A stretch of 64,000 nt of DNA from positions 206,994 through 270,993 of IMG/VR virus record IMGVR_UViG_3300045988_139374, one strand, 5' to 3'. The translations under genes and the position numbers were made by a program. The notes beneath the pieces were generated by a model. The model was not told the origin of the DNA and ran no database searches. It saw only the letters and a program-made list of their open reading frames with translations. This document shows, in pieces, positions 22,409 through 64,000 of the stretch. This stretch comes from a virus. Numbering within the stretch: position 1 is the first letter of the stretch; the number at the start of each line of letters is the position of its first letter.

Positions 22409-22714
22409 TATGACGCTTCTAATAAAATCTATAAAACGGAAATTAGTTGTGGATATAAATCATTTAAGCAAGTAGTAGATTATATAAAGATAGGCGATAT
22501 AAGTGATTTTGTTATTCCAATATCAATATATAAAAAATCTGCAGATATACGTCCTATGAGTAATTCTACTGGAGCAGATGCACTTCTTTGGTATTCTTGG
22601 TATTATACTGAAAATAAAACTAGTATATTTCTTTTATATACTACCAAAGCTACTTCTACGAATTATTCATTTCAAGAACTTAATACGATTGTATATTATA
22701 TTCTACCAATCTGA
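22409..22714 (+). other. start-less DAS cassette B2 (family B, 101 codons)
   Basis: Motif core at 22411-22421. YDASNKIYKTEISCG...ISDFVIPISIYKKSADI...LLWYSWYY...NTIVYYILPI ends on the TGA that is part of the next motif copy (22712-22714). Confidence 0.65.
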
Positions 22715-22955
22715 CGCTTCTATAAAGAAGCTTAATAATATTTATATTGCTTATGATGTTGGGTATGAATTAAATGGTACAATGATAGGATATAATATAT
22801 TAACAGTTCCAAATAATTTTGTCATCAATGACAAATATAATTATATTGGAGCGTTTCAGTATAAAGATAAAATATATGCTATATATGGATACACTGTGAT
22901 CAACGGATTTACTCTTACCAGATATAATAGCTATGCTAATATAGTATATATTTAA
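22710..22955 (+). other. start-less DAS cassette A2 (family A, 81 codons)
   Basis: Motif core at 22712-22722. The ORF reads SDASIKKLNNIYIAYDVGYELNGTMIGYNIL...YANIVYI-stop. Confidence 0.65.
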
Positions 22956-22956
22956 G

Positions 22957-23247
22957 TCTAATGACGCTTCTATTAAACATCTTAGTTTTGCCTGTGATAC
23001 TGTTACATTTGTTGCTATGATAGGTTTTAGAAAGATATATAATACATATAATAGTATTATATATCCGATATCTATATATACTACAGATCGTATACTTCCT
23101 GCTACTGATGGAGAAGACATAATTGTCCCAATATTTGCATGGTATAATTATAGTAACAATACTAGCATTTATCTATGCTTATTTCAGACAGAGCTGCATA
23201 CAACTGTAATGAATAATTTTACAACACATGTTTATTATATAAAATAA
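22957..23247 (+). other. start-less DAS cassette B3 (family B, divergent)
   Basis: Motif core at 22962-22972. The ORF reads SNDASIKHLSFACDTV...YPISIYTTDR...IFAWYNYSNNTSIY...THVYYIK-stop. Confidence 0.6.
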
Positions 23248-23251
23248 TTAA

Positions 23252-23476
23252 TCTAATGACGCTTCTATAAAAAAGCTTAGTAATATTTATATTAATACTT
23301 TTAATGGATATCCATTAAATGGCACAATGATAGGATGCGATATATTAGATAGTCCAAATTGGATGTTTAATTATATTACAGCATATCAATATAAAGGTAA
23401 AATATATGTTACATCATGGGCATCTGGCAGCGATTTTCAAAGTTTTAATAGCCATGCAAATATTGTATATATTTAA
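23252..23476 (+). other. start-less DAS cassette A3 (family A, 74 codons)
   Basis: Motif core at 23257-23267. The ORF reads SNDASIKKLSNIYINTFNGYPLNGTMIGCDIL...HANIVYI-stop. Confidence 0.65.
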
Positions 23477-27520: not shown

Positions 27521-27618
27521 AACCTCCTATTTTGTTACTATAAATTACTATGAAGTTGAACTTTCGAGCTTTCGCACATTATATTAATATTAGTAAAGGA
27601 GAGGAGTTGGATCAATAT

Positions 27619-30600: not shown

Positions 30601-30729
30601 GTTCTAGACCTAACAGGTACTAGTGCAGAATATGAGCAACCTACTGAATCTCTACTGCCTAATGATGATGGATATGTTGATACGGCAGAGACTAAGCTTG
30701 TTATCACTGCAGATCTAATAGGTGGATAA
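27619..30729 (+). CDS. large tail fibre protein, about 18 tandem units of a repeat of roughly 55-65 aa
   Basis: The likely start is ATG 27619, after GGAGAGGAG, although the track ORF starts at 27550. Repeat consensus: DIL..KTAWVNG.K(V/I)TGTMP..G......AG.SYTIP.GYH(N/D)GSG.V.AKDLASQT. Confidence 0.65.
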   Translation: MADKEMYFDTSSANNLGTLALEPDESMATPSSVKDKYAFKDAVTRDVLIGTMPLIPAANTKIDPKYDGHVNNTYNIPEGYHNGKGTVYVGDLSEYTPGTAKPEDVSASKTFWVNGKKYSGTLDVKQATQEADATPWDIVSPKTAWVNGKKVTGLIPSLPRKDQNLLAGESYTFPYGLSAGTTVISAADLASQTVANAKANQIIKGQTAWVNGVKVTGTFDLVENTKEYLKETNATQNQVLSSKKFYSSVYGQVMSGTMLDHSNDPVRTLLNGVTFTIPEGYYSGRTSIKVQSLRDATISNATEDTILVNRTAWVNGVKVTGTMPMIDSKIVELGAGESFDIKKGFHTGTGKVRAKDLSGETIGTAEAGDLLVGKSMWVNGKKIVGTMPDIEASTTNLKPGGTYQIPEGHHSGNGSVTVKSLAYYTSANATASDILTTKNAWVNGVKVEGTMANNGAVSSILAAGASYTVPKGYHNGSGVIKAQDLASQTSANAAADDILSPKTAWVNGKKVTGTLAIDGSASQDDVIAGKTFYNNDPKAKRTGTLTLTGNATESDVVSGVTYYTTDPKRKHTGSLTLNGTANTAQVLSGYTFYKNNPKAKVTGTMKNNGGISATLNANQSFTIPEGYHDGSGTIIANGLSGQTSGTATASDIAKGATAWINGVKVTGTLELTGDATPEQVVAGATFYSNNLKQKMIGTMIQVPTKIVSLRAGESYTIPAGYYDGTSKVFAVDLASQTQATADVNKVLEGYTAWVNGKKITGKMLNQGSRSFRDLVAGSNIKIPEGYYSGYGYITTLDLATQTQSDATANDILITKTAWVNGVKVTGSMPNNGSWTQENVNAGSSVTIPKGYHNGSGKITIKSLRDQTQSNAVPYNLLIAKTAWVNGSKITGTMPDNTGWSSKEMTAGSSATIPAGFHDGTGVITAKSLASQTQATAGAADILSPKTAWVNGSKITGTIPTYTTSKLRIAAGYDTILPAGYYANPIHIYSLYGDDVLDLTGTSAEYEQPTESLLPNDDGYVDTAETKLVITADLIGG

Positions 30730-35027: not shown

Positions 35028-35060
35028 GCGGAAGGGAACTAAATCCCTTCCGCATTTTAA
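35028..35060 (+). terminator. rho-independent terminator
   Basis: GCGGAAGGGA pairs with TCCCTTCCGC, followed by ATTTT. Confidence 0.8.
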
Positions 35061-35122
35061 TTATTCTTATTTTCACTTGTATAGTATAAAATTGAAATAG
35101 AAGGAAGAAAGAGTACTTCTAT
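35055..35122 (+). promoter_or_regulatory. conserved promoter block plus 5' hairpin
   Basis: The 37-nt block is identical to those at 21293 and 63963. The stem is ATAGAAG (35097-35103) / CTTCTAT (35116-35122). Confidence 0.65.
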
Positions 35123-35163
35123 TGGTCGTATAAAAAGATGTAAAATAAAAGGAGAAGTTTAAT

Positions 35164-40099: not shown

Positions 40100-40136
40100 G
40101 GGTAAGGAAGTAAAATTCCTTACCCATATTTTATTT
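40100..40136 (+). terminator. rho-independent terminator
   Basis: GGGTAAGGAA pairs with TTCCTTACCC, followed by a T-rich run. Confidence 0.8.
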
Positions 40137-40160
40137 AAAAAGTCATTGAAATAGATTAGA

Positions 40161-40199
40161 TAATATAATAATGAAATAGAAGCGAAAGAGTACTTCTAT
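40161..40199 (+). promoter_or_regulatory. promoter-like -10 block plus conserved 5' hairpin (variant copy)
   Basis: TAATATAATAATGAA is followed by the stem ATAGAAG (40176-40182) / CTTCTAT (40193-40199). Confidence 0.55.
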
Positions 40200-40241
40200 T
40201 TTAGTCGTTTAATTAATCACAATATATCTGGAGGTATAACT

Positions 40242-51612: not shown

Positions 51613-52062
51613 TTAGCGATTGGGATCATCAGTAATGAAGCTGGTATTAGTCAGGTTAACACCACGCATATTCTTCATATACTGCTTCTGAGCAACCATA
51701 GCTGCACGAGCTGCTCTGTTGCCATACTTTTCCACAATCTTAGCACGAGTCTGCTTACGAAGCAGCTGATACTTAACCAGCTTATTATACAGAGGATCCT
51801 TCTTAGCACGTGCCATCATGATTGCCGCAATAGTCTTACGGCGATTCAGGTCAGTTGCCTTAGACAGACGAACCATAGTACGCTTATTAGACAGAACCTT
51901 TGCCTCAAGCAGAGACTCGCCAACACCATTAGGAGCGCAGAACTCACGAACAGTGTTCTCACTATAATGGTGAGTCAGATCATCGACCAGGAATGCTTCA
52001 ACAAGAGCATCCATATCAATGCCGAATTCTTCATTGTAATTATTTTCAGAATAAATGCCCAT
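51613..52062 (-). CDS. basic protein with G+C-rich codon usage (abundant-protein candidate)
   Basis: 149 codons with a GAAAGGA RBS. The C-terminal half is K/R/A-rich. Confidence 0.8.
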   Translation of the reverse strand: MGIYSENNYNEEFGIDMDALVEAFLVDDLTHHYSENTVREFCAPNGVGESLLEAKVLSNKRTMVRLSKATDLNRRKTIAAIMMARAKKDPLYNKLVKYQLLRKQTRAKIVEKYGNRAARAAMVAQKQYMKNMRGVNLTNTSFITDDPNR

Positions 52063-52110
52063 GATATTAAGTCCTTTCTACATGTAGAGTTTAAATTTCA
52101 TAATGGTTAT

Positions 52111-52157
52111 GTATTATAAAAGTGATGAAATGAAATCGAGCTCTCTATTTCATTCAT
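52111..52157 (+). promoter_or_regulatory. conserved promoter (-10 GTATTATAAAAGTGA) plus 5' hairpin
   Basis: Same architecture as the other copies. The stem is TGAAATGAAAT (52126-52136) / ATTTCATTCA (52147-52156), with one bulge. Confidence 0.5.
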
Positions 52158-52275
52158 TTCCCATTATGAGTTATTATAAAATAGTTCAATTGTAATTGAT
52201 AATTTTGCATACTTTATAATAATCAATGGGAGAATATTTATCTCTCAATATACATATCTAGAAAGGACTTTTATT

Positions 52276-52761
52276 ATGAACAATTACAACGGTAAGAACA
52301 AGAACTTCAGCAACAAGCCCCGTATGACTGATGAAGCGTATGCAGCTCGTAAGGCTCAGCTCATTGAGAAGCAGACTAAGAGTCTGGACGTTATCAATGA
52401 TGCTTGCACTTTCCTGGAGAAGGCAATTGCAGATACCAATGTCCATCGTGTTTCCATGAAGTATGTTCTTGCATATCTGAATGGTGAGAAGAATTATACT
52501 GTAGATGAAACCAAGGCTATTTCTAAGACCAACGATATTCTGATTGAGCTTGCAAATGCTCGTATGAATCGTTATATTACTGATGATCGCAACAATATTC
52601 GTGTTCTGTATGTTCATGAGCGCATGAAGACCTCTTTCAAGAAGGAGCTCCATGATCGTATTGACCAGCTTCTGAAGGATCATCCTGTTCTGCTGAAGTG
52701 GAGTGATACCACTGGCGAGAACTACAAGACTGTCATGGAAGAGAAGAAGGACAATGGCTAA
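52276..52761 (+). CDS. hypothetical protein (G+C-rich codon usage)
   Basis: 161 codons with a GAAAGGA RBS. Confidence 0.8.
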   Translation: MNNYNGKNKNFSNKPRMTDEAYAARKAQLIEKQTKSLDVINDACTFLEKAIADTNVHRVSMKYVLAYLNGEKNYTVDETKAISKTNDILIELANARMNRYITDDRNNIRVLYVHERMKTSFKKELHDRIDQLLKDHPVLLKWSDTTGENYKTVMEEKKDNG

Positions 52762-53257
52762 TTATATTGAACGAGAAGATGATAATCTATCTTCTACTAA
52801 CGATACCGTTGTAAATGATTCTACAAATACAGAAGAATCTGAGTTTCTTAATAGATGGGATTGGCTACTTAGTGGATGGGATATTATGACCATTGCTGAA
52901 AAGATGCAGATCTTTATGCCATATCTCCATTATATTAATCTCAGAGACTTTCCTAAAACTGAATTTGATGCGCAGCTTAATAAAGATATTGCAGAAAATT
53001 CTTTTAAGTTGTGCAGATCTTTCAGTGGAACTTTTAAGTTCGATCCTGACCAGCAAGGTATTCCGAATATGATCATTGTCTATAATCCCGTAGACGTTGA
53101 TGCTATTCCTTATCCTTCTCTAAAGGTAAAGGTTAAAGCTTGGGGTAGAAAGTATGGCTTTTACAAGGAAACTCCTGTAATTGATAATACTATTAACTCT
53201 GGCTGTAACTGCAATCCTAAGCATGATCATTATGGTTGCTGTAACTGTAATAATTAA
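52754..53257 (+). CDS. hypothetical protein with Cys/Asn-rich C-terminal tail
   Basis: The ATG at 52754 overlaps the end of the upstream gene. 167 codons ending SGCNCNPKHDHYGCCNCNN. Confidence 0.7.
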   Translation: MANYIEREDDNLSSTNDTVVNDSTNTEESEFLNRWDWLLSGWDIMTIAEKMQIFMPYLHYINLRDFPKTEFDAQLNKDIAENSFKLCRSFSGTFKFDPDQQGIPNMIIVYNPVDVDAIPYPSLKVKVKAWGRKYGFYKETPVIDNTINSGCNCNPKHDHYGCCNCNN

Positions 53258-53270
53258 CTTGATTTGAATA

Positions 53271-53312
53271 TTAGCCCAGAGGTATAAAGTTACCTCTGGG
53301 CTAATATTTTAG
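53271..53312 (+). terminator. rho-independent terminator
   Basis: TTAGCCCAGAGGTA pairs with TACCTCTGGGCTAA. Confidence 0.85.
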
Positions 53313-53343
53313 TAATAGAAACTGAAAGGAGATATTAAATGGA

Positions 53344-53781
53344 ATGGTAAAAATGAATCAAACTGTTAATCCAAAAGAGCATAAAATCTTGATGAAGTAT
53401 CGAGATACAATGTCCAGAATAATTAAATCAGCACATCCAGAAATGGATATACGAGACATTTATGCTGGAGTTGAATATTCGATATCTAAGAGGTTCAAGA
53501 ATTTCGATCTCGTAGTACAGAATAATTACACTGGTTCTAATCCTAAGATTAGTATGCTAGAACTGGTGGATTATATTGCAAAACGAGAACCAATTCTAAC
53601 AAGTTATGGAACTATGTTTAGAAGACATGATGTAGTTCCAAATCCTATGGCAAAGGTTATTCAAAACTTCCTAGACCTCAGAAAACTTCACAAGAAAGAA
53701 ATGTTTAAATATCCTAAAGGATCAGAACAATTTGAGAAATATAATCTACTCCAGGCACTTGATAAGATAGATGTAAATGGT
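53344..53781 (+). CDS. family B DNA polymerase fragment, exon 1 (fingers, ends inside motif B)
   Basis: The exon ends ...FEKYNLLQALDKIDVNG. A GAAAGGAG RBS is upstream, and the TAA at 53782 is read here as the first three intron nucleotides. Confidence 0.65.
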
Positions 53782-54159
53782 TAACTGTATAGCCCCATTA
53801 GGCTGGAAACGGTCAAATGGTAACACCAAGAAATTGCTGGAAAGTCTTAAAGCCTAATTGCTAATATGTGTAGATATTAGAGCGAAAGCAGAAATAATAA
53901 TTAGGATGATATATGGTGATAGTAAGCCTAAGTATCTTCAACTAAAATAGATAATCAGCATCCAGCTTAGAGAAGTAATTCTCTAATAGGTTCAACGACT
54001 AATTGTAGAGCTCAAGTGAGTCTCGAAATCTGGTGTACCTAAGTCATAGAAATATGATATGGTAGTGATATAGTCTAGTATCCTAGAGATAATCTAGGGA
54101 AGTTCATTAGAGAACTGTATAAGTGAGAGATAGTATCAACGACTTATATGAATATTACG
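53782..54159 (+). other. group-I-like self-splicing intron, no ORF (boundaries inferred)
   Basis: 378 nt that split motif B, with no ORF and no RBS before 54148. Exon 1 ends in T and the intron ends in G. ATTAGGCT (53797-53804) pairs with AGCCTAAT (53851-53858), and the region is less AT-rich than its flanks. Confidence 0.55.
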
Positions 54160-55995
54160 ATATATGGCCTTGTTGGTTTGTACGTGTCGATTCTGTTCGA
54201 CCTCAACATTGCACCGTCTGTAACATCTATCGGTAGATCTCTAATTAGTTCTGCAATCCTTTGTTTTGAAGGTTTCTTAGGGAACAATGTTAAGTTTGGA
54301 AGTCTTAATGATGTTCTCATTTTCATTGATAATGTAAGAATGGAGTATCATGATTGGAAATATAATGATTATGAAGTTCTTGGTTTCAATGGATTTATCT
54401 CTCCCGAAGAGTGTTTCAATAAAATCATGATGAATTGTGGTTTTAAATATATTCCTACAGATCAAGATATGGATACTGTATGGAGAATTATTCAAAACTG
54501 TAATCAGATTGAATTGAATAGACTCTTCTACAAGAATAATCTTTATTGTTTTATGGATCTTCCTATTGCCAGAGATCTAATGGTAAATATTATTACTGAA
54601 ATGAAAGTTCCTTATATTGAACCTGCAAATCCTCCAAAAGAAATTGTTAATGATCTTAATGCTCTTCGAGATTTACTGTTGGAATATGTCTTCTATCGCC
54701 ATCAGTATATGGATAGAATGATCAGAAATAAAGAGATGGTTAAGACTGTTTCTATTGTTTCCGATACGGATTCTTCGTTTATCTCTTTGGATGCTTGGTA
54801 CAATTATAATATACAGTATCTGAAGGATTATGATTGCCTTATTATGCATCAGCAAATCGATGTATATAAATTCCTCGAAGAAGAGAAAAAGAGAAAAGAT
54901 TATTTCTGGGCTGATACTGAAACTCCTGAGTGGTATAATGCAACAGATAATCGATTAGCCACTAAAACTTTGAAAGTAGATAGCTTTGGAGATATTGTAG
55001 ATCAATCGGAACTTGCTGCTATTGAATTCTTAGATGATAAAAAGGATTATGATTTCTTTAGCGAAGAGATCATTAATCAAAGAAGAGCTATTGATGCAAC
55101 TAAGATTATTCCTCAAGACAATGTAAAATTTGCTTTGATCAATATCATGTGCTATATTCTATCTTCTGTGATTAACAAGTATATGATTGATTTTACTAAG
55201 GAATCTGGATCTTATCGGGGCGATGCTAAGTGTAAGATTAACATGAAGAACGAGTTTTATATGTCTCGAATCATGTTGACTGATGCTAAGAAACATTATG
55301 CTAGTTTGCAGATTCTACAGGAAGGTAATTATCTAGGAAATGGTGTTTTGGACGTTAAGGGTATTGACTGTCTTACTAAGTCTTCTACTTCTAAGGACAC
55401 ACAGAAGGCATTGAAAAAGATTCTTCTTGAAGATATGCTAACTGGAAATTCTGTAGATCAATTGAAACTTATTAAAGATATTGCAATACTGGAGAAGACT
55501 ATTTATAATGATCTTCTTTCCGGATCTAAGAAATATTACAAGCCTGCAACTATTAAATCTATGGATAGTTATGAAAATCAAGGAGCTAGAATTCAGGGAG
55601 TTAAAGCAGCTATTGCATGGAATTATGTAAAATGCGATCTTCCTGGGTTTGATCTCGGAGATAGAAATGCTATCGATGTGATTAAGGTTAATGTAAATAA
55701 AGATACTCTAGAATCTATTAAGGATGAGTATCCTGAACAGTATCAAAAACTCTGTGAATTAACAGATCCTAAAAATCAGAATCTCGCTGATGGATTAAAA
55801 GTCTGTGATCTATTCAAGGGTAAACTTGATACTATTGCATTGCCTAAAGATCTTCCTGTTCCAGAATGGTTGAGAAAACTGATTGATTATCAAGAGATTA
55901 TTACTGATAACCTTGGTAATTTTCCTGTATCTTCTGCTGGAATCGGCCAATTTGGCGCAAAGAAAGCAAACTACTCTAATGTAGTAAGAATCTAA
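54160..55995 (+). CDS. family B DNA polymerase fragment, exon 2 (rest of motif B, palm motif C, thumb)
   Basis: The exon begins IYGLVGLYVSILFDLNIAPSVTSIGRSLI and carries motif C as IVSDTDSSFISLD. The splice product KIDVNG|IYG matches Kx3N(S/G)xYG. Confidence 0.7.
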   Translation: MYGLVGLYVSILFDLNIAPSVTSIGRSLISSAILCFEGFLGNNVKFGSLNDVLIFIDNVRMEYHDWKYNDYEVLGFNGFISPEECFNKIMMNCGFKYIPTDQDMDTVWRIIQNCNQIELNRLFYKNNLYCFMDLPIARDLMVNIITEMKVPYIEPANPPKEIVNDLNALRDLLLEYVFYRHQYMDRMIRNKEMVKTVSIVSDTDSSFISLDAWYNYNIQYLKDYDCLIMHQQIDVYKFLEEEKKRKDYFWADTETPEWYNATDNRLATKTLKVDSFGDIVDQSELAAIEFLDDKKDYDFFSEEIINQRRAIDATKIIPQDNVKFALINIMCYILSSVINKYMIDFTKESGSYRGDAKCKINMKNEFYMSRIMLTDAKKHYASLQILQEGNYLGNGVLDVKGIDCLTKSSTSKDTQKALKKILLEDMLTGNSVDQLKLIKDIAILEKTIYNDLLSGSKKYYKPATIKSMDSYENQGARIQGVKAAIAWNYVKCDLPGFDLGDRNAIDVIKVNVNKDTLESIKDEYPEQYQKLCELTDPKNQNLADGLKVCDLFKGKLDTIALPKDLPVPEWLRKLIDYQEIITDNLGNFPVSSAGIGQFGAKKANYSNVVRI

Positions 55996-56005
55996 AAGCA
56001 AATAA

Positions 56006-56042
56006 TAGGATAGGTATAAAGCCTATCCTATTATTTTTTTTT
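56006..56042 (+). terminator. rho-independent terminator
   Basis: TAGGATAGG pairs with CCTATCCTA, followed by a long T-run. Confidence 0.8.
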
Positions 56043-56066
56043 ATTTATTGTTATTTATTTCAAATA

Positions 56067-56104
56067 GATATTATAACAGTGATAGAGACATGTACGTTCT
56101 CTAC
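56067..56104 (+). promoter_or_regulatory. conserved promoter (-10 GATATTATAACAGTGA) plus 5' hairpin
   Basis: The stem is TAGAGA (56083-56088) / TCTCTA (56098-56103). Architecture matches the other copies. Confidence 0.5.
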
Positions 56105-56139
56105 CAAGTCAAAAATATTTTATAGGAGGTCCAAAGATT

Positions 56140-56745
56140 ATGGATCACAAAGGTTTTATCGTAAGAGAAGATGCAGCAGCTGAATTTAAGAAGGATATCT
56201 CTGAAAAGAGAAAATCTCTTCCTAAACCAAAGAGAAACAGCAATCGTGGATTTGTTGTTCGCAATGACAGCAATCCCAGAAGCTTTCAGCTTGGAAAGAA
56301 AGTTGCTTACAAAACCTTCAGACTCTGGCCTGATGATGTTCAGGCTATGTATCTGAAAGACATCTTGAGCAAATATCCTGGGTTAACTTCTAGGAATATT
56401 GCCATCATGATGGGATGCTCTCCCATCACGATCAGAGAAATTAATCAGAAGCTTGGAAATATCATTCCTACTTTTGATAGGAAAAGTCCTCAGAAAGAGC
56501 ACGATGACATCGTGAATCGGTTTTACACTGATTACGATTGTCTGAAAGCTGCTGCAGAATATGCAGCTACCAAGCAAAGTATCAGGAAAAAATGGAGTAA
56601 GAAATCCAAATCCACAATCAGTATTCAGAATATGAGCATGACTGTCAGCTTCAATATTGATACTGACAATATTGCTCAATTTCTGAAAGAGCATGGGTTC
56701 AATGGTCAGGTAACTCTGACCATTAGTAAGAACATCAGCGAATAA
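56140..56745 (+). CDS. putative DNA-binding protein (HTH in central region)
   Basis: 201 codons with a TAGGAGGT RBS. LTSRNIAIMMGCSPITIREINQKLG looks like a helix-turn-helix, and codon usage is G+C-rich. Confidence 0.4.
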   Translation: MDHKGFIVREDAAAEFKKDISEKRKSLPKPKRNSNRGFVVRNDSNPRSFQLGKKVAYKTFRLWPDDVQAMYLKDILSKYPGLTSRNIAIMMGCSPITIREINQKLGNIIPTFDRKSPQKEHDDIVNRFYTDYDCLKAAAEYAATKQSIRKKWSKKSKSTISIQNMSMTVSFNIDTDNIAQFLKEHGFNGQVTLTISKNISE

Positions 56746-56774
56746 GAATAAAAAGAAAAAGGAGATAAAAAAAT

Positions 56775-57728
56775 ATGTTTAGCCTTAATAATGGTTCTAC
56801 CACTTCTACTCTTCGTGACAAGCTCATGAAGTATAAAAAGATTATCTTTCACTCCGGCGTATTTCACGCCGATGAGGTATATGCTACGGCATACCTCATG
56901 ATTTTGTATGACGTATTCGGCCTTCCGTTTCCTAAGTGGGAACGTAAGAATGTTATCTCTCCTGAGATGACCGAGGAGAACGGTTATCTCGTGTATGACG
57001 TTGGTGGTGGTCGTTTTGACCACCATTTTCCAGAAGAACAGAAGCAGCGTAGAGAAGATGGAACTCCTTATGCTGCATTTGGGTTGATTGTAAGAGAGTT
57101 CCATGAAGGATTCTTGACCCAGGAGGAATATGAAGCTTTCGACTCCTCTTGGGTCAAAGGTATCGATCTCAATGATAATACCGGATGTGGAAACCCGGCT
57201 GCATTTGAGATCAAATGCATGAATCCCACTTGGGATTCACCAAATAATAACACCGACATCAGAGTGTTTACTGCAATCAGCAAAGCAAGAGATACGCTCG
57301 AATATATCATTGAGCATATCTATGCTGATTGTCATGCACGTGAGTGTGCAGAGACTGCAGTAGACATTGCTGATGGGTGCGTGTACTTGGAGCATTATGC
57401 ACCTATCGGTAAATATATTGCGCCGAAAGATGGAATCGCATTTTTTGGTTTTCCGAGTAATCGGGAAATCGGAAAGTATTCCATTACTTCCGTTAAATGG
57501 AAGGGAGTTAATAAAGCTCTGTTCCCTCAGCAGTTTAGAGGACTGAGTGCAAAAACTCCTAATTTTGCTCAGATCAATTTCAACACTGGTCTGAGTTTCG
57601 TACACCCGAGTGGATTTATGGCCACTTTTGATAGTAAGGAATTGGCCAAGAAATTCATGCGGGATTATAAGAATCAGTTTGAGATTCCTGTACCTGTAGA
57701 AGATGATAAAGAGGAGGCGCAGGAATAA
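56775..57728 (+). CDS. MYG1/UPF0160-family metal-dependent hydrolase
   Basis: FHSGVFHADEVYA and YDVGGGRFDHHFPE match the MYG1 family signatures (HxGxFHxDE and DVGG..yDHH), recalled from memory. Confidence 0.65.
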   Translation: MFSLNNGSTTSTLRDKLMKYKKIIFHSGVFHADEVYATAYLMILYDVFGLPFPKWERKNVISPEMTEENGYLVYDVGGGRFDHHFPEEQKQRREDGTPYAAFGLIVREFHEGFLTQEEYEAFDSSWVKGIDLNDNTGCGNPAAFEIKCMNPTWDSPNNNTDIRVFTAISKARDTLEYIIEHIYADCHARECAETAVDIADGCVYLEHYAPIGKYIAPKDGIAFFGFPSNREIGKYSITSVKWKGVNKALFPQQFRGLSAKTPNFAQINFNTGLSFVHPSGFMATFDSKELAKKFMRDYKNQFEIPVPVEDDKEEAQE

Positions 57729-58147
57729 TGAACATGCTTATTGTGAATAATCTCAATAGAAGTGGAGATCTCCCAGAAATTGAGGTTAATATTTACAATG
57801 AGAAGAAAAGGGAAATTGTATACAGTTCTACTATGCAATTTTCTGGAACATGTTTTTTATGCTTCCGTAAATATAACGGAACCGTAACGTGTTCCGCTAT
57901 TGGCAAGTCTCCTAATATTGATTATATGGATCTTGTCAATAAAGGAGTAGATAAAGCAACCATAATCGGAATCATGAAAGGAGCGATTACTTATTCAATT
58001 TGTAATATGATTATCACAGCAAAGGTGTTTGATAAAGATATTCATGGAGAACCTATCCATGTAGAAGATGTGAATATCTTTCCAAATACTGAAAAAGAAA
58101 GGGAGATTGATAAGTTTATTGAGGATTGTTATTTCATGATCTCTTAA
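57728..58147 (+). CDS. hypothetical protein
   Basis: 139 codons. The ATG overlaps the upstream stop (TAATG). Confidence 0.7.
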   Translation: MNMLIVNNLNRSGDLPEIEVNIYNEKKREIVYSSTMQFSGTCFLCFRKYNGTVTCSAIGKSPNIDYMDLVNKGVDKATIIGIMKGAITYSICNMIITAKVFDKDIHGEPIHVEDVNIFPNTEKEREIDKFIEDCYFMIS

Positions 58148-58161
58148 TCATTAATATAAAA

Positions 58162-58198
58162 GGAGTGGGTTTCATTCGCCCACTCCTTTTATTTTTTA
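58162..58198 (+). terminator. rho-independent terminator
   Basis: GGAGTGGG pairs with CCCACTCC, followed by a T-run. It is a near-duplicate of 1764-1803. Confidence 0.85.
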
Positions 58199-58255
58199 TT
58201 ATATTATCGACTTTTATATAATTTAGCCCCATTATATATTAGGAGGATTTATATT

Positions 58256-59188
58256 ATGTCTCAGGCAGATATCATCTTTAAAAACACTTGCCTTGATATT
58301 ATCAATAATGGTATTGATACTACTGGTGAAAGTGTAAGAGCAACTTGGGCAGATACCAATGAGCCTGCTTATACTATTAAGAAATTTGGAGTTGTAAATC
58401 GTTATAATCTTCAAAAGGAATTTCCTGCTATTACTATGCGTCCTACTAGTATTAAAGCAGCTGCCGATGAACTTCTTTGGATTTGGCAAAAGAAGAGTAA
58501 TAATGTAAATGATTTGAATTCTCATATTTGGGATTCTTGGGCAGATGCTGAAGGGTCTATTGGTAAAGCATATGGATATCAAATCGGTAAAACTTATGCT
58601 CATCATCATTTGAATGATTATCCTACTGCTGAAGTATTTGCAGAGCTGAAGGAATATCCTTCTTCTAGGGTAGTATTTAAAGACGATAATTATTGGGTAT
58701 TGCTTGACCAAATTGATGGAGTAATTTGGGATCTTAAGCATAATCCTTTTTCTAGAAGAATCATGACTAATATTTATAACTTTGAAGATCTTCATGATAT
58801 GAATCTTTATCCTTGCGCATATTCCATGACCTTCAATGTTACTAGAGATAAAGAAGATGGTAGACTCACTCTAAATGGTATTCTTAATCAACGTTCTCAA
58901 GACATGCTTACCGCAGGCAATTGGAATGTTGTACAATATGCAATTCTTATTATGATGCTTGCTAAAGTTTGTGACATGTATCCTGGAGAATTGGTACATG
59001 TGATCGCTGATTGCCATATTTATGATCGTCATATTCCTATTGTAAAAGAACTTATTGAACGTCCTACTTTTGATGCTCCTAATGTATGGCTTGATAAAGT
59101 AGATAATTTCTATGACTTTAAAATCGATAATATTCATATCGATAATTATCAGCATAATTCTCAGATTAAATTCCCTGTTGCAATTTAA
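58256..59188 (+). CDS. thyA: thymidylate synthase (ThyA-type; a dUMP hydroxymethylase-type variant cannot be excluded)
   Basis: RRIMTNIYN..LYPCAYSMTFNV contains the active-site Cys, and LNQRSQDMLTAGNWNVVQYAIL matches the QRSxD..LG.PFNIASYALL signature. Confidence 0.75.
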   Translation: MSQADIIFKNTCLDIINNGIDTTGESVRATWADTNEPAYTIKKFGVVNRYNLQKEFPAITMRPTSIKAAADELLWIWQKKSNNVNDLNSHIWDSWADAEGSIGKAYGYQIGKTYAHHHLNDYPTAEVFAELKEYPSSRVVFKDDNYWVLLDQIDGVIWDLKHNPFSRRIMTNIYNFEDLHDMNLYPCAYSMTFNVTRDKEDGRLTLNGILNQRSQDMLTAGNWNVVQYAILIMMLAKVCDMYPGELVHVIADCHIYDRHIPIVKELIERPTFDAPNVWLDKVDNFYDFKIDNIHIDNYQHNSQIKFPVAI

Positions 59189-59214
59189 TATAATTAAAAG
59201 GAGAATAAATTAAA

Positions 59215-59493
59215 ATGGAAGAAAAGCTGGTTATTCGTGGAGCAAAGATTGGTTCTACTTATAGAGTAGATATTAGAAATTTAGAGCCTATAAATCCTTT
59301 TAACGTGATCACTGAGAGGATTATGCGAGTATTGTATATTGCTAGGCATAATACTACTGATGAATACCTTGTTGCTTGCTGTCCTTTTAATTATATAGAA
59401 GATGAATGTAAATCTAGTGATGTGACTGATAATGTAAAAATGATTCCTATTTCTGTATGGAGAAAAATTGCAACTAGAATCGATAGAGGATAA
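59215..59493 (+). CDS. hypothetical protein
   Basis: 92 codons with an AAAGGAGAA RBS. Confidence 0.7.
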   Translation: MEEKLVIRGAKIGSTYRVDIRNLEPINPFNVITERIMRVLYIARHNTTDEYLVACCPFNYIEDECKSSDVTDNVKMIPISVWRKIATRIDRG

Positions 59494-59497
59494 AATA

Positions 59498-59761
59498 ATG
59501 AAAGTTAAAGTTGGAGAAATTTATAAGCATCATAAAGGATCTTTTGTAAAAGTAGTTGCTCTATGTAAGCATACTGAAACGCTAGAAGATATGATTGCAT
59601 ATATTCATGTAAATAATACTTCTGCGAATAATACAGATCCTAATCTGTTCTTTGCCACAGATCATACTGTGTGGGTACGCCCTGCAAGTATGTGGTTTGA
59701 TAAAGTTAAAGATGGAACTACTACTAGATTTACTCTTGTTGAATTTAAGGAGAAAAAATGA
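59498..59761 (+). CDS. DUF1653-like protein
   Basis: The ATG at 59498 is internal Met 11 of the track ORF. IYKHHKGSFVKVVALCKHTETLEDMIAYIHV...WVRPASMWFDKV fits the DUF1653 pattern YxHYKG..Y.V...A.HTET.E..VVY...WVRP..MF. Confidence 0.55.
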   Translation: MKVKVGEIYKHHKGSFVKVVALCKHTETLEDMIAYIHVNNTSANNTDPNLFFATDHTVWVRPASMWFDKVKDGTTTRFTLVEFKEKK

Positions 59762-59762
59762 A

Positions 59763-60419
59763 ATGATGAAAGCAATTGTATGCGTAGACAACAATTGGGC
59801 TATCGGAAATCAGAATAATCTTCTTTTTAATATTAAAGAAGATATGGCTCGATTTAAAGATATTACAATGGGTAAAACTATTGTATACGGTCGTAAGACA
59901 CTAGAATCATTTCCTGGAATGAAACCTCTTCCTGGACGTAAGAATATTGTTATGACCAGAGATTTTAATCATCTTGAATCTAAATCTTTGTTTGCTGCTA
60001 AGTATGCAGGATTTTTCTTAGCTCCTCCTGAATCTGAAGGTAGAGGTAGAATTCGTAATCCTGATATAGATGAAGCAGAGTATAGATCTTCTTTTGCTGT
60101 TAGACGTAATCCTGAAGTTAAGACTCCTAATAATAGAACTATGATTTTCTGGGTAGAAAATCTTCGTGGCTTACTCGACGCAGTAGAAATTATTGGAGAC
60201 AGTGAAAATACTATAGTCTGTGGTGGAGAGCAGATTTATAGACTTCTACTTCCTTATTATGATACAGTATATGTAACTAAAGTAAATGCTGAAGCTCCTG
60301 CACATGATGCAACATTTCCTAATCTAGATCAAATGGATGATTGGAAAGTTGTTGAAGATGAAGATTGGAGATCTAATGGATCTTATAATTTTAAATTTAT
60401 GACTTATAAAAGGAAATAA
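59763..60419 (+). CDS. folA: dihydrofolate reductase with an internal insertion of about 55 aa
   Basis: The ATG at 59763 is internal Met 38 of the track ORF. VDNNWAIGNQNNLLFNIKEDMARFK..TIVYGRKTLESFP..PLPGRKNIVMTR...VCGGEQIY is colinear with bacterial DHFR. Confidence 0.7.
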   Translation: MMKAIVCVDNNWAIGNQNNLLFNIKEDMARFKDITMGKTIVYGRKTLESFPGMKPLPGRKNIVMTRDFNHLESKSLFAAKYAGFFLAPPESEGRGRIRNPDIDEAEYRSSFAVRRNPEVKTPNNRTMIFWVENLRGLLDAVEIIGDSENTIVCGGEQIYRLLLPYYDTVYVTKVNAEAPAHDATFPNLDQMDDWKVVEDEDWRSNGSYNFKFMTYKRK

Positions 60420-60424
60420 ATCTT

Positions 60425-61306
60425 ATGGATATGGTGAATGTGAATTTTGGATATCTTGTAAAGAATTTTACCGATAGAAATAGTGAAGGCGAACGCTACA
60501 CTATGTTTGAAAATCCTAATAAGATTTATGACAGATTTTCTGAAGTTAAAGGTAGAATTGTTTATGATGGATATAATAAGATGATAGAATATGTACAGCA
60601 GAATATTCTTACTTTATTATCATCCGCTGTGGATAAAAAACCTAAGGCTTTAAGAACTATTACAGATAAAGATTTTCTTGTAGCTTTGGATATGTCTGGT
60701 ATAGCTCTTGATAGAGAATATACTAATAGATTCAATAGAGTATATCGAGCTTATGTAATTAATCCTGCAAACAATGTTCTTTATAATGAAGAAAATGCTT
60801 GTTTGCTTGGAAAAATTGCTATAAGAATGAATCGAGAAATGATCAATAATCTTATGAGTCTTGGTCTTTCTGAGAGTTATGCTTTATGGATTGCAGTAAA
60901 TAGAAATTCTAGTACAGATGAACGTCGTAATATTAGAAGAATGGTTCGTGCTATGCAACACATGGATCCTGATATTATGACTGAGCAGATGGTAGTAAAT
61001 GTATTTTCTAAGACTTTTAGTGATCAGCTTACGAATCTTTTTATTTCTATCATGACAGATAGATTTGATGCCTTTGATGACGACAATGAAAAATATGTCT
61101 ACTCTGCTGTATCTAATGCTATCTTGGATATTCTAAATACTATGGATATTGATGAGATCAAAGATATTGTATTTGAGTATGAGAATGAATTAAAAAGATC
61201 TGGAGTTAAAGGAAGATTTTCCATGATGGCTATTAGTCCTGGGGAATATCCTGCAATTTGTAGAGCAATGGATGAAATTGAAGCTATGGGAATAAAGATT
61301 GAATAA
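60425..61306 (+). CDS. hypothetical protein
   Basis: 293 codons, followed by a terminator. Confidence 0.8.
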   Translation: MDMVNVNFGYLVKNFTDRNSEGERYTMFENPNKIYDRFSEVKGRIVYDGYNKMIEYVQQNILTLLSSAVDKKPKALRTITDKDFLVALDMSGIALDREYTNRFNRVYRAYVINPANNVLYNEENACLLGKIAIRMNREMINNLMSLGLSESYALWIAVNRNSSTDERRNIRRMVRAMQHMDPDIMTEQMVVNVFSKTFSDQLTNLFISIMTDRFDAFDDDNEKYVYSAVSNAILDILNTMDIDEIKDIVFEYENELKRSGVKGRFSMMAISPGEYPAICRAMDEIEAMGIKIE

Positions 61307-61314
61307 CTAATATT

Positions 61315-61353
61315 AGAGGAATGGAGTAAAATCCATTCCTCTATTTTATTTTA
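61315..61353 (+). terminator. rho-independent terminator
   Basis: AGAGGAATGGA pairs with TCCATTCCTCT, followed by a T-rich run. Confidence 0.85.
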
Positions 61354-61356
61354 TAA

Positions 61357-61566
61357 TCTGACGCTTCTAATAAGATTAAGAGTACAGATTTTACATCAGG
61401 GTATCAATTCACATTAGGTATTCCAATATCTGTTGCATGTAAAAGTGACCATAATTGTATTGCATATATAACTAAATCATATTGGATATATTGTATGTAT
61501 TTTAGTACGACTGGTAGTGCTGATTATAAAATATATAATAGGCCTTGTATAGTATATTATATTTAA
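61357..61566 (+). other. start-less DAS cassette C1 (family C, 69 codons)
   Basis: Motif core at 61359-61369 with in-frame TAA at 61354-61356. The ORF reads SDASNKIKSTDFTSGYQFTLGIPISVAC...NRPCIVYYI-stop. Confidence 0.65.
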
Positions 61567-61571
61567 TTATA

Positions 61572-61612
61572 AACCAATAGAGAGAAATCTCTATTGGTTT
61601 TATTTTTTTTTT
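61572..61612 (+). terminator. terminator hairpin inside the cassette array
   Basis: AACCAATAGAGA pairs with TCTCTATTGGTT, followed by a T-rich tract (TTTATTTTTTTTTT). Confidence 0.8.
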
Positions 61613-61636
61613 GAAAATATATTAAAATTATAATAA

Positions 61637-61849
61637 TTTGACGCTTCTACTAAAATTAGGCATCAAGATATAAATATTACAGATAGTAGTGGATATACTT
61701 TTAGAACTGGAACACCTATATCTGCAGTATATATAGGAGATACAAGTAGTAATTATGCTATTATAACTTTTTCAAATGTAATTATGATAAAAGGTTTCGG
61801 ATCATTAGGTTCTAGTACTACAGGTACTGCTAGAGTATATTATATCTAA
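61637..61849 (+). other. start-less DAS cassette C2 (family C, 70 codons)
   Basis: Motif core at 61639-61649 with in-frame TAA at 61634-61636. FDASTKIRHQDINITDSSGYTFRTGTPISAVY...GTARVYYI-stop is followed by the degenerate motif ATCTAATGAtatTTC. Confidence 0.65.
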
Positions 61850-61904
61850 TGATATTTCACATCATAATAATTCTCGAAAACTTTTCATAAAGGAGATAAT
61901 TATT

Positions 61905-62408
61905 ATGAATTTTAATATGAAGCAAATCCATACTATCTATGAATCTGGCGTCAATGATCAGACTGGAGCAAATCTAGATAATACTCTAAGATCTGCAGAC
62001 CTTATGGAAATTTTTGATAATATCTGCCCTATTACTGGTGGCGTATATAAGGCAATGAAGAATGCTGCTGCTGATCCGCAGAATCTTAAAGTTACAGTCT
62101 CTAAGAATGGTGAAGGTGAAAAGGCAAGTCTTTTCATTGAAGCTGTAGAATTTATGACTTATGTAGAAGCTTGCGGTAAGACTATCGGTGAAGCAGCAGA
62201 TGATATTGTAGATGCATATCAAACTGATATTCCTGGCATGGCAAGCGATGATATTCATATTGTATTTCCTAGTGATGCTCTTAATAAGAATGATCTTGGA
62301 AGTCAGAATTATGGCAGAGATGTTAAGAATGACTGGGCAATGCAATTGATGACTGGAATTCGCAGATATGGTCTAAAGGCTAATATTGGTGTAGAAGAAA
62401 GTAAGTAA
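61905..62408 (+). CDS. hypothetical protein
   Basis: 167 codons with an AAAGGAGA RBS. The gene lies between two convergent cassette arrays. Confidence 0.8.
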   Translation: MNFNMKQIHTIYESGVNDQTGANLDNTLRSADLMEIFDNICPITGGVYKAMKNAAADPQNLKVTVSKNGEGEKASLFIEAVEFMTYVEACGKTIGEAADDIVDAYQTDIPGMASDDIHIVFPSDALNKNDLGSQNYGRDVKNDWAMQLMTGIRRYGLKANIGVEESK

Positions 62409-62454
62409 GTATTTATTTCCAGGTATAATAGATAGTAAAACATATTTGAATTAA

Positions 62455-62497
62455 AATAATTCACTAGAGATCCTTCTCTAGTGAATTATTATTTGCT
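62455..62497. terminator. bidirectional terminator hairpin
   Basis: TTCACTAGAGA (62460-62470) pairs with TCTCTAGTGAA (62475-62485). Confidence 0.85.
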
Positions 62498-63409
62498 TTA
62501 TCTTATCATTATAAGTGGAAATATGCCAGGATTTTTATCTCCATTACCATAATTGTAAACATCTTTGTCTATTACAGATCCATTAGATACACACCATGGC
62601 ATATCATAATAAGAAGAATGAGCATTACCATACGAAGTTCCTCTTAATCCTCTTAGAAGCGAGTAATCTCCAAATTGCCAAGTATTAAAATTAAAATATG
62701 GTAGTTTATAATTAGCTTCACCATCATCATAAACTGTATTATTTACACCAAAAGTACCAGTAATTTGACCAGCACTCATAAGAGCACCATAACATACAGT
62801 CCATTCATATCCAGTGGTATTACTACCAACATTAGCGCTATTAGACAGTAGCATTCTTCTTTTTATTAAATGATCTTTTAATATAGAATCATTATTTACA
62901 AATGAAGATTGTAAATAATTGTTAATTTTTTTATGAACACCAGTATTCATATAACCATTGCTTAATGACATATTTCCATTATCATATGTAAAAAACGATG
63001 TTGTAGGAATCATAAATATACCATATCCATTATCATAAGTAGTTCCATCTGAAGCAGTTTTATTATGCTCACAATCAAATCCAACTATTACCCATGTCTT
63101 ATTATATGTACCATCTTTAATAGTTATTGTAGAACCAATAGAAGCGTCATAATAGCCAGTAGCATGATTACATGTACTAAGAAAATTATCTACATCGCTA
63201 ATACTAGACCAAGTACCAAGATTCTTAACTTCATATCTAGTATTAGGAGGAGTAGTATCATGATCCAAATTACTGCTATCACCTAGAATTTTGATAATAA
63301 TAGATTGTATAGATGTATCAGCACTAAAGGATGAACAATCAGGCAATCCTCCAACTTCATAAATTGTAACTATATCTTTACCTAAAGATACTTTATTAGA
63401 AGCGTCAGA
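62498..63409 (-). other. start-less DAS cassette D (303 codons, composite D1 plus D2; tail-fibre-tip-like)
   Basis: Reverse motif core at 63397-63407 with an in-frame TAA just upstream on the minus strand. The ORF reads SDASNKVSLGKDIVTIYEVGGLPDC...HATGYY|DASIGSTITIKDG... and has a second in-frame motif copy at 63139-63149. The sequence is G/N/Y/T-rich. Confidence 0.65.
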
Positions 63410-63428
63410 TTATTTAAAATAAATATAA

Positions 63429-63656
63429 TTAAATATAATATACTATACAAGAACAGGTACCAGTAGTATAAGTTGCATAGCTACCCAGAAAAAATCTAAT
63501 ACATCGTATATAATATGATTTATTGATATAAGTAATATATGGAATCGGAACACCATTATTACTACTTACATTACGTGTAACAGATATTGGTATACCTAAT
63601 GTAAATTGATCTTCTGATGCAAAATCTACACTCTTAATTTTAGTAGAAGCGTCAGA
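63429..63656 (-). other. start-less DAS cassette C3 (family C, 75 codons)
   Basis: Reverse motif core at 63644-63654. The ORF reads SDASTKIKSVDFASEDQFTLGIPISVTRN...CSCIVYYI-stop. Confidence 0.65.
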
Positions 63657-63957
63657 TTGGTAGAATATAATAAACAATTGTATGAAGTTCTTGAAATGAA
63701 TACCTTGCAGATGTATCTTTTGCAGCATATAAAACATATATGCTTGTTCCATTTTCTATATGATACCAAGAATACCAAAAAATTGCATCACTATTATTTG
63801 TATTGCTTCTAGGATACATATCTGCAGATTTTTTATATATAGATATTGGAATAATAAAATCGCTTATATCTTTTATCTTTATATAATCTATTCCAGCACT
63901 AAATGCTTTATATGCATAATTAATTTCCATCTTATAAATTTTAGTAGAAGCGTCATT
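63652..63957 (-). other. start-less DAS cassette B4 (family B, 101 codons)
   Basis: Reverse motif core at 63945-63955. NDASTKIYKMEINYA...ISDFIIPISIYKKSADM...IFWYSWYH...HTIVYYILPI ends on the TGA inside the next motif copy (63652-63654). Confidence 0.65.
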
Positions 63958-63961
63958 CCAC

Positions 63962-64000
63962 ATTTTAATTATTCTTATTTTCACTTGTATAGTATAAAAT
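63962..64000 (+). promoter_or_regulatory. conserved promoter block (cut by window end)
   Basis: TTTTAATTATTCTTATTTTCACTTGTATAGTATAAAAT is identical to the blocks at 21293 and 35055. It directly abuts the minus-strand cassette array. Confidence 0.6.

Follow-up and report, generated by a model that had tools for sequence, protein, structure and literature searches.

Start-less cassettes in a gut jumbo phage as probable alternative C-termini of a tail-fibre-like protein

We analysed a 64,000-nucleotide stretch of the virus record IMGVR_UViG_3300045988_139374 (IMG/VR; positions 206,994 to 270,993), hereafter the window, and within it a locus near the right end that holds two short open frames, C1 (61357–61566) and C2 (61637–61849). 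Our preferred reading, to which we assign a probability of about 0.8, is that C1 and C2 are silent, start-less alternative C-termini of a tail-fibre-like protein, which become joined at the DNA level to an expression module by site-specific recombination, a Xer-like enzyme being the likeliest catalyst. The cassettes reside in the genome of a ~250-kb lytic jumbo phage of the human gut. The window has a G+C content of 32.8% and a phage-like gene content that includes thymidylate synthase, dihydrofolate reductase (DHFR), a divergent family-B DNA polymerase and split multisubunit RNA-polymerase beta subunits, the last being typical of jumbo phages.

Start-less cassettes behind an invariant motif

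A first-pass annotation of the sequence had placed cores of a recurring motif at 61359 and 61639, a terminator after the gene at 60425–61306, and a hairpin with a T-rich tract between the two units. All of these were recovered, and the locus is laid out as follows.

61314–61353, +: intrinsic-terminator-like hairpin (61314–61343, 12-pair stem) and T-run at the 3' end of a 293-residue gene (60425–61306), before C1
61359–61369, +: proposed C1 recombination site, 7-bp core TGACGCT (61359–61365) followed by TCTA
61357–61566, +: C1, silent C-terminal cassette 'S-DASNKIKSTDFTSGYQFTLGIPIS...CIVYYI*', 68 residues from Asp; stop at 61564–61566
61571–61612, +: terminator of the C1 unit, 13-pair hairpin (61571–61600) with a T-run to 61612
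61639–61649, +: proposed C2 recombination site, core TGACGCT (61639–61645) followed by TCTA; module-free form of the site that is filled in relative L136
61637–61849, +: C2, silent C-terminal cassette 'F-DASTKIRHQDINITDSSGYTFRTGTPIS...ARVYYI*', 69 residues from Asp; stop at 61847–61849
61905–62408, +: 167-residue gene with an AAGGAG ribosome-binding site (RBS) at 61890–61895, directly downstream of C2 with no terminator between them in the window

C1 has neither an ATG, GTG or TTG start nor an RBS, and an in-frame TAA (61354–61356) directly precedes it. C2 is likewise an open frame devoid of start codon and RBS, and a terminator precedes each unit. The one at 61314–61353 is predicted to shield C1 from transcription coming from upstream. 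A TATAAT-like hexamer (61352–61357) lies beside the C1 site, and similar hexamers are found 5' of many other sites. The two cassettes are distant homologues of each other (39% identity over 59 residues, E=1e-6).

Both begin with the cassette opening sequence TGACGCTTCTA, which is common to all 16 exact copies of GACGCTTCTA in the window. Including copies with one mismatch the total rises to 20, against 2.4 expected, a number reached by 0 of 100 shuffled sequences; the core TGACGCT is confined to the 16 exact sites. Every one of these opens an open reading frame (ORF) of 20–302 codons in the frame GAC-GCT-TCT ('DAS.K...'), and 10 of the 16 have an in-frame stop 1–2 codons upstream of the motif. 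The cassette ORFs lack start codons and Shine–Dalgarno sequences, whereas ordinary genes such as that at 61905 have AAGGAG. In total the window contains 15 cassettes and 16 sites (one site lies inside a 303-residue cassette), arranged in at least three bays up to 60 kb apart. Besides C1 and C2 these comprise the following.

114–2820: cassette bay 1, sites 114–124 (−), 1831–1841, 2129–2139 and 2637–2647 (+)
21825–23476, +: cassette bay 2, six tandem cassettes, sites at 21825, 22072, 22411, 22712, 22962 and 23257
62498–63409, −: 303-residue silent cassette, site 63397–63407, with a second in-frame exact motif at 63139–63149; fused to the donor module in relative L131
63429–63656, −: silent cassette of the convergent array, a C1 homologue, site 63644–63654
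63652–63957, −: silent cassette of the convergent array, site 63945–63955

The first cassette of bay 2 (21826–21888) is cut to 20 codons by an early stop. Early stops of this kind in some cassettes indicate that the repertoire includes pseudo-cassettes; a further truncated cassette, of 39 codons, was noted at L121 4038–4157 (L numbers denote loci of other assemblies). The internal motif of the 303-residue cassette (63139–63149, −) is in frame ('GYYDASIGST'), so that recombination there would give a shorter, 216-residue tail. L129 differs from the window upstream of this internal site.

When the window was combined with 11 loci of four IMG/VR jumbo contigs (161–259 kb), 44 unique sites were obtained at which TGACGCTTCTA was invariant, the flanks were weakly conserved and the cassettes differed. 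The 10–11 nt TGACGCTTCT(A) were invariant at all 44 sites, and at 91 once further loci were added, and alternative synonymous codons for Asp-Ala-Ser were never used. This pattern suggests that the motif is selected at the nucleotide level. The sites are dispersed genome-wide on both strands, often right after a terminator. For collection-wide scans an 18-mer proved specific, while the matches listed for the 14-mer ATCTGACGCTTCTA were mostly due to chance. Searches of Pfam and PHROG with the cassettes and their neighbours returned nothing, and a nucleotide search of GenBank phages gave only remote matches, to unannotated faecal contigs.

Two peculiarities of the sites are recorded here. In all 44, the G of GAC is the last base of an ATG, CTG or TTG triplet, and the frame so opened closes after ~11–20 codons. 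In two homologous cassette pairs (22712–22714 and 63652–63654) the upstream stop is the motif's own TGA (ATC-TGA-C), reminiscent of the RF2 frameshift site. Dyad symmetry was also considered and dismissed: the cassette sites form 3.9 complementary pairs of 12, compared with 3.4 at random positions, and are therefore asymmetric.

The first-pass annotation had further described a decayed motif copy following the C2 stop. We do not retain it. The segment concerned (61844–61858; ATCTAATGAtatTTC / ATCTAATGATATTTC) has three mismatches to the 15-mer, a level at which 2.7 matches per window are expected by chance, and unrelated three-mismatch matches occur at 7265 and 34374. In five strains it is conserved as a non-motif leader of the 167-residue gene and in none is it a working site; it is probably just the stop region of the cassette and the leader of the next gene.

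None of the 44 sites had an upstream ORF of more than 106 codons or an obvious start. Since a long upstream frame was lacking throughout, we considered recoding, joining at the RNA level, gene conversion and site-specific recombination as ways in which the cassettes could be expressed.

In-frame fusions and changing positions of the donor module

Comparison with relatives, which the first-pass annotation had proposed as a check, yielded both fusions and breakpoints located exactly at the motif. Relatives were found as contigs encoding the 167-residue gene. One of them, L130, is the window sequence itself, extended 8.4 kb rightwards. Another, L131, is 100.000% identical to window positions 51905–63407 (11.5 kb) and departs from it exactly at the motif 63397–63407. 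At this point the 303-residue cassette of L131 is fused (...SLN/DASNKVSLG...) to a donor N-terminal module, resulting in a 439-residue ORF. The donor module has its own RBS and ATG and 136 codons (MAIIDKIKVGSTTYDV...MNQTLTSLN), and the fusion is in frame exactly at the motif.

Searching with the donor N-terminus retrieved 78 proteins; in 65 of them it is fused to a C-terminal part of 40 or more residues. At 50% identity these C-termini fell into 38 clusters; most begin with DAS[ILTNF]K and many end in (V/I)YYI. The largest cluster was of the C2 type (proteins of 205–209 residues), and C2 itself is 72–78% identical to the C-termini of fusion proteins P0044, P0021, P0009, P0048, P0032 and P0030. 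C1 shares 45–47% identity with two donor fusions, P0046 and P0026, in their C-terminal parts, and by eye a closer silent homologue of it is present at L081 1914. The convergent-array cassette with site 63644 is 73% identical to the P0046 C-terminus. For the cassette at site 2130, a cluster of orthologues with at least 90% identity was silent on ~20 contigs and donor-fused (P0201) on 3, all of these contigs coming from ~275-kb genomes. As a protein query, the donor N-terminus gave nothing beyond a weak match to Roseburia phage Jekyll.

Exchange at the motif was also evident at the C1 position. L129 has two other cassettes, of 118 and 102 residues, where the window has the C1 unit: the contig leaves the window sequence just after the C1 site, at 61373, and identity resumes exactly at 61639. 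L135 carries three units in place of the C1 unit, and in other strains the gap between the 293-residue gene and C2 is occupied by two or three different cassettes, or by the module. The 11-bp repeat is far below the k-mer length used in assembly, which makes chimeric assembly an unlikely source of these junctions. The first-pass annotation had favoured use of the units at the DNA level over read-through transcription, and this is borne out by fusions to an RBS- and ATG-bearing module in independent assemblies and by near-identical genomes that break exactly at the motifs. It had drawn the same conclusion from the terminator between C1 and C2; DNA-level use stands, although the hairpin is better read as the 3' terminator of C1 itself, moving with the unit.

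Alignment of four modules delimited the donor element. Sequence agreement ends exactly at the outer edge of TGACGCT on either side, with a shared core of 7 bp; the module measures 944 bp and is bounded by TGACGCT as direct repeats, with a donor end of ..CTAAATGACGCT. On the 242.7-kb contig L136 the order is a 292-residue gene, a terminator, TGACGCT/ATTACGAAG..., the 944-bp module, ...CTAAATGACGCT/TCTACTAAAATT, a C2 orthologue and the 167-residue gene; the expressed form of the C2 orthologue is P0020 (207 residues). The left outer flank of the module in L136 is the flank found upstream of C1 in the window. The window therefore presents the same site without the module, with C2 silent and with one extra unit, namely C1 and its own terminator, and 61307–61849 would thus represent an unoccupied expression site. 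Homologues of the terminator-spacer segment sit 5' of the module's left junction in L131 and L121, the identity between window positions 61558–61645 and the L131 segment upstream of the module being 85%.

In L235 the module occupies bay 1, where it is fused to the orthologue of the site-2130 cassette (P0201, 307 residues) and its flanks are collinear with window positions 107–852 and 2886–4893. We count at least five contexts for the module: the C2 locus (L136), the right side of the 167-residue gene in either orientation (L135, L131), bay 1 (L235), and others that lie near a recombinase gene (L140, L154) or upstream of a 'native' C-terminus, DAYLPIAGGTMTGTINF... (L121). Collinearity of the flanks on both sides in L136 and L235 argues for insertion and excision rather than inversion.

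A candidate for the excised form was found in L137, a 1085-bp k141 contig whose 141-nt terminal overlap defines a 944-bp circle with the junction ..CTAAATGACGCTATTACG.. / CTAAATGACGCTATTACGAAG. Around the core the junction forms an imperfect inverted repeat, TCAGACT..ACTTCG.TAA / TGACGCT / TTA.CGAAGT.AGTCTGA, which is conserved in five modules and in part in the distant relative L139 (ENA ERZ28614272 scaffold_366, 7534–11707). L139, with a donor 54% identical, retains the core TGACGCT. Its cassettes begin DA[IL]EEIE and are all tightly clustered around the donor, a more compact layout that may be ancestral.

Two further features of the module were noted. An inverted copy of the site (TCTGACGCTACTA or ..TTCTTA) lies inside it, ~370 bp from the left end (L136 9826–9838, L131 12075–12087, L235 5826–5838 and equivalents in L121 and L140). 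Recombination between this copy and the donor's own site would flip the segment with the RBS and N-terminus and truncate the product after ~23 further codons, and might thus act as an OFF switch. The first ~100 nt of the module (ATTACGAAGTAGTCTGAGAAATCTGCC...; L136 9468–9570, with equivalents in L131, L135, L121 and L137) contain a near-duplicate of the leader and RBS segment 5' of the donor ATG and end in a terminator-like hairpin (AGGGTAAAATCGAGCGATTTTACCCT and a T-run); they could correspond to a small RNA or a regulatory leader.

The encoded protein gave consistent, if weak, PHROG tail-fibre matches (E=1e-3 to 1e-6), and the version with the native C-terminus (L121) carries 'LPIAGGTMTGTINF', including the common fibre motif 'GGTMTG'. 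On the basis of these matches and this motif we call it tail-fibre-like, an assignment of moderate confidence for a product of ~205–245 residues. An AlphaFold2 model of P0044, built from an alignment of 61 sequences, has N-terminal helices, the last of which (residues 121–138) ends at the junction, and a cassette part folded as a beta domain (~residues 141–205, beta strands with predicted local distance difference test scores, pLDDT, of ~82–92). Solved structures, searched by sequence with the donor, yielded no match.

We propose the following scheme. Each genome would carry many cassettes in several bays and one or few expression modules, the module consisting of an upstream leader (presumed promoter), an RBS, an ATG and a 136-codon stretch that ends in ...MNQTLTSLN. 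Site-specific exchange inside the 7-bp core TGACGCT would join this module to a cassette so that the frame runs on as ...SLN/DAS.K...., with C1 and C2 each contributing a beta-rich 'head' of ~70 residues. Placed at the C2 core, as in L136, the module would give a 207-residue protein, with the 167-residue gene in the same transcription unit; at the C1 core, the transcript would end at the hairpin 61571–61612. The more specific idea of a 'reverse integron', in which the 944-bp module excises as a circle with the inverted-repeat core junction and the Xer-like recombinase re-integrates it before any of dozens of scattered silent tips, is in our judgement evenly balanced between right and wrong. 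Cassette units with their own terminators, C1 for example, may be exchangeable in the same manner. The scheme further supposes that switching is frequent and that the product binds the host receptor.

Candidate recombinase and alternative explanations

L140 encodes a 325-residue protein that combines Phage_int_SAM and Phage_integrase domains; the first cassette follows ~3 kb downstream of its gene, and the left site of the module at 4.1 kb. The best relatives of this protein among solved structures are a XerC-like protein (5e-32), XerD (5e-27), XerA and IntI4, and the candidate catalytic Arg, His and Tyr positions are invariant across 14 homologues. Copies 92–98% identical to it were present in all four of the cassette-bearing IMG/VR genomes (4/4). 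Downstream of the recombinase gene comes a cassette core at 1.3 kb in three of these genomes, and the left site of the module at ~3.9 kb in the remaining one. This XerD-like tyrosine recombinase is the probable catalyst of module–cassette joining. By comparison with contig _126218, and assuming collinear genomes, its gene would lie ~40 kb to the left of the window. A Pfam scan of the window and the 8 kb to its right (66 ORFs), and of 32 ORFs of relatives, detected no recombinase or transposase family; a 304-residue HTH_17 protein in L129 is a weak lead.

Several observations weigh against our interpretation. The window and the adjoining 8 kb on its right contain no donor module. As the recombinase also lies outside this region, we infer from relatives that the window's genome possesses both. 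Recombinase homologues of 62–69% identity occur in the related 274–288-kb phage contigs L141, L155 and L156 with no cassette sites in the stretch fetched, and for this reason the enzyme may have another or an additional role. All differences observed are differences between assemblies and could have built up over evolutionary time instead of within one clone; contigs carrying the 282-residue ORF gave no evidence of within-sample heterogeneity. The ratio of non-synonymous to synonymous substitution rates (dN/dS) among C2 orthologues, 0.3–0.98, fits diversifying selection and is also compatible with relaxed constraint. As for the protein, the PHROG matches are weak, and a structure search with the P0044 model gave nothing significant, the best match being resistin (E=0.6). 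In L138 a second donor gene is directly followed by a module, which creates the same junction in linear DNA, so that the L137 circle could be a cycle in the assembly graph, and the circle junction was absent from IMG/VR and JGI metagenome contigs. The gene upstream in L138 was examined as a possible homologue of window 944–1756 and rejected, as only the terminator is common to both.

Four other explanations were weighed against module movement. An inversion-only shufflon of the Rin, R64 or Min type would keep the donor fixed and invert cassettes to it, with C1 and C2 exchanging with the array at 62498–63957, between which and this array the first-pass annotation had proposed a check for structural variants. 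Sites do lie on both strands in arrays that face each other, the module contains an inverted motif copy, a single inversion between the donor site and that of the 303-residue cassette could yield the L131 junction, and the cassette sites are asymmetric like rix and sfx (PMC6109161). However, exchange of this kind was not seen in the available genomes. Two of the module's contexts correspond to window positions 60 kb apart, and L136 and L235 are collinear on both sides, where inversion leaves one non-collinear flank. In 6/6 strains the 167-residue gene that separates the facing arrays has the same orientation while the flanking cassette content varies, the module's left end bears a second core as a direct repeat with a variable outer flank, and a circular contig exists. 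We consider inversion alone unlikely. Lower still is the probability we give to an absence of programmed switching, with the cassettes as relics or a reservoir, rare illegitimate or homologous recombination between co-infecting phages, and the motif as code for a structural linker. The reliance on different assemblies for every line of evidence, the high dN/dS and the truncated cassettes (21826 and L121 4038, for example) would all suit it. What it leaves unexplained is the invariance of 10–11 nt at 44 (91) sites with synonymous codons unused, breakpoints that fall exactly at the core, and a contig with zero mismatches over 11.5 kb that nevertheless has a different junction. Moreover, a shared stretch of 7–11 bp is too short for homologous recombination, a dedicated-looking recombinase adjoins the cassettes, and one cluster at ≥90% identity is silent on ~20 contigs and fused on 3, all from ~275-kb genomes.

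Expression in place, by an NTG start and frameshift, by read-through at ATC-TGA-C or by trans-splicing to a leader, could draw on the A/C/T-T-G always present at positions −2 to 0, on the motif TGA that serves as upstream stop in two cassette pairs and on the TATAAT-like hexamer before many sites. Against this, the NTG frame closes early, there is no slippery sequence and an RBS is absent, and the presence of the joined product as DNA in many independent assemblies makes joining at the RNA level unnecessary; we regard the idea as having almost no chance of being correct. Given the DNA fusions we also dropped its particular forms (an NTG start with a −1 shift, an RF2-like +1 shift, stop-codon reassignment, and trans-splicing or leader priming); neither an ordinary nor a suppressor tRNA was present. 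An equally slight probability attaches to gene conversion, in which cassettes would be copied from silent partial genes into a fixed expression locus in the manner of pilE/pilS or vlsE. The many dispersed silent copies and the single expressed gene recall the logic of antigenic variation, but in L131, L136 and L235 the expressed cassette stands in the silent copy's own flanking context, which means that the module came to the cassette and not the reverse. Beyond the 5' 10–11 nt, furthermore, the cassettes have no shared nucleotide blocks long enough to prime conversion.

Relation to known systems and other features of the window

The module–cassette arrangement is best described as a variant of the phage shufflon, with which it shares its logic and probably its enzyme class. 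Among described systems it most resembles the Rin shufflon of Bifidobacterium prophages, made up of a constant Rc gene, start-less Rv genes, 11-bp asymmetric rix sites and a XerD-like recombinase of the armless type (Mavrich et al. 2018, PMC6109161). Both systems are phage-encoded and combine a constant N-terminal part of a receptor-binding-protein gene with small start-less variable C-termini, a short asymmetric repeat (11 bp) before each of these and, as the probable enzyme in the present case, a XerD-like tyrosine recombinase. Rin, however, is a compact temperate-siphovirus locus, with rin and Rc on the flanks of a few Rv genes, and inversion is its supposed mechanism. Here, 15 cassettes are spread over several bays in 64 kb of a ~250-kb lytic-type jumbo phage, no recombinase gene adjoins them in the window, and the part that changes place appears to be a module with promoter and N-terminus, which has direct-repeat cores and collinear flanks. 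The crossover sequences also differ (TGACGCT here, TTCCCTAACCC in Rin). A three-cassette shufflon has been reported for BV01-like phages.

In common with shufflons generally, the system has a constant 5' part and start-less 3' segments, and an asymmetric crossover repeat at the 5' edge of the cassettes and the 3' edge of the constant part; inversion between inverted repeats in one compact locus was not found. The invertases Gin, Cin and Min are serine recombinases that act on 26-bp dyad sites with an enhancer, by inversion only, on 2–6 segments per locus. Gin (Mu), Cin (P1) and Min (p15B) likewise swap tail-fibre C-termini by site-specific rearrangement and thereby change host range (PMC6109161). 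Serine-invertase features were not observed here, as the sites are asymmetric and no Resolvase-family Pfam match was found among the 66 and 32 ORFs scanned. The R64/IncI shufflon, whose recombinase Rci is of the tyrosine class to which the candidate enzyme here belongs, resembles the present system in its asymmetric sfx sites with a 7-bp core, one conserved and one variable arm, and in its alternative adhesin C-termini (pilV) (PMC5430464). In contrast, it is a compact and strictly inversional plasmid locus for a pilus adhesin, while here the module boundaries and the circle point to direct-repeat recombination.

Further parallels exist outside the shufflons. In integrons, IntI moves promoterless complete genes to a fixed promoter by way of attI and attC. 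The cassettes described here are similarly promoterless units bounded by a conserved core and seemingly exchangeable one by one (L129, L135); intermediates in the form of circles are plausible, and IntI4 is among the structure-database matches of the tyrosine recombinase. The cassettes are gene fragments, though, to which the promoter and 5' coding module appears to move; attC hairpins are absent, the boundary being an 11-nt linear motif, and the recombinase scores higher against XerC and XerD than against IntI4. The vsa/HvsR system of M. pulmonis and the vpma/Xer1 system of M. agalactiae use a Xer-like tyrosine recombinase to join a single expression site, consisting of a promoter and in some cases also the gene's 5' end, to one of many silent genes in which these parts are missing. 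These Mycoplasma switches operate by inversion at clustered loci of cellular genomes and serve immune evasion, as opposed to host recognition by a virus. The fixed expression locus of silent-cassette gene conversion (pilE/pilS, vlsE) is at odds with L131, L136 and L235. For a diversity-generating retroelement, no reverse-transcriptase family occurred among the ORFs scanned, and each cassette is a sequence of its own and not a near-copy of a common template. Our literature searches found no description of the present system. It differs from the shufflons above in its scale, in its dispersal over bays of a jumbo genome, in the mobile promoter and N-terminus module bounded by direct repeats, and in having no recombinase next to most of the bays.

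Which hosts a phage can infect depends largely on its fibre tips, and the known phage switches provide two to about six options at a single compact invertible locus. The present lineage appears to carry dozens of ready tips (15 in the 64-kb window, 38 fusion clusters), selected by moving the front end of the gene. If this is true, the programmed receptor-binding repertoire would exceed in size any described for a phage, and the topological solution would be new, with a mobile expression site instead of inversions, by which the fibre tip could be changed without inverting or deleting essential genes between the bays. A natural system this compact (a 7–11 bp site and a 944-bp module) could be of use in engineering phages with switchable host range. 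It would also explain why gene callers label these regions as 'intergenic' or as short spurious ORFs, and it may help to explain fragmented assemblies of such phages. The sole contig end examined, that of ERZ919511 k127_73532, lay not at a cassette but exactly at window position 64000, inside a promoter repeat.

The repeat in question is a promoter-like element, TTAATTATTCTTATTTTCACTTGTATAGTATAAAAT, usually found right after a terminator (window 845–916, 17364–17441, 21286–21358, 35048–35125, 40133–40204 and 63956–64000). Several copies of it then carry a 5' hairpin (AATAGAAGG...CTTCTATT), and the recurring element probably defines a phage-specific promoter class. The 167-residue gene next to C2 had no family matches; our guess is that it has an assembly or accessory role. 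In some strains a radical-SAM/Cxxx-repeat cluster, resembling those for ribosomally synthesized and post-translationally modified peptides (RiPPs), is located within the cassette bay (L136 11286–14578, L235 309–3793 and L081 2222–5563); it is absent at the equivalent place in the window.

Two large genes of the window were also noted. At 5958–9617 (−) a 1219-residue protein is encoded that has an endonuclease-like N-terminal region (phrog_15137, 1.5e-42), a zinc finger and a GNAT acetyltransferase domain. It was considered as a nuclease of the cassette system, and no link was found. A 1059-residue protein at 27550–30729 (+) consists of ~ten 64-residue repeats (motif TAWVNGxKVTG; phrog_13589) and is possibly another fibre or a decoration protein. 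It is adjoined by a divergent 436-residue paralogue (26210–27520, −), and the pair gives rise to the long inverted repeats I2 and I4–I6.

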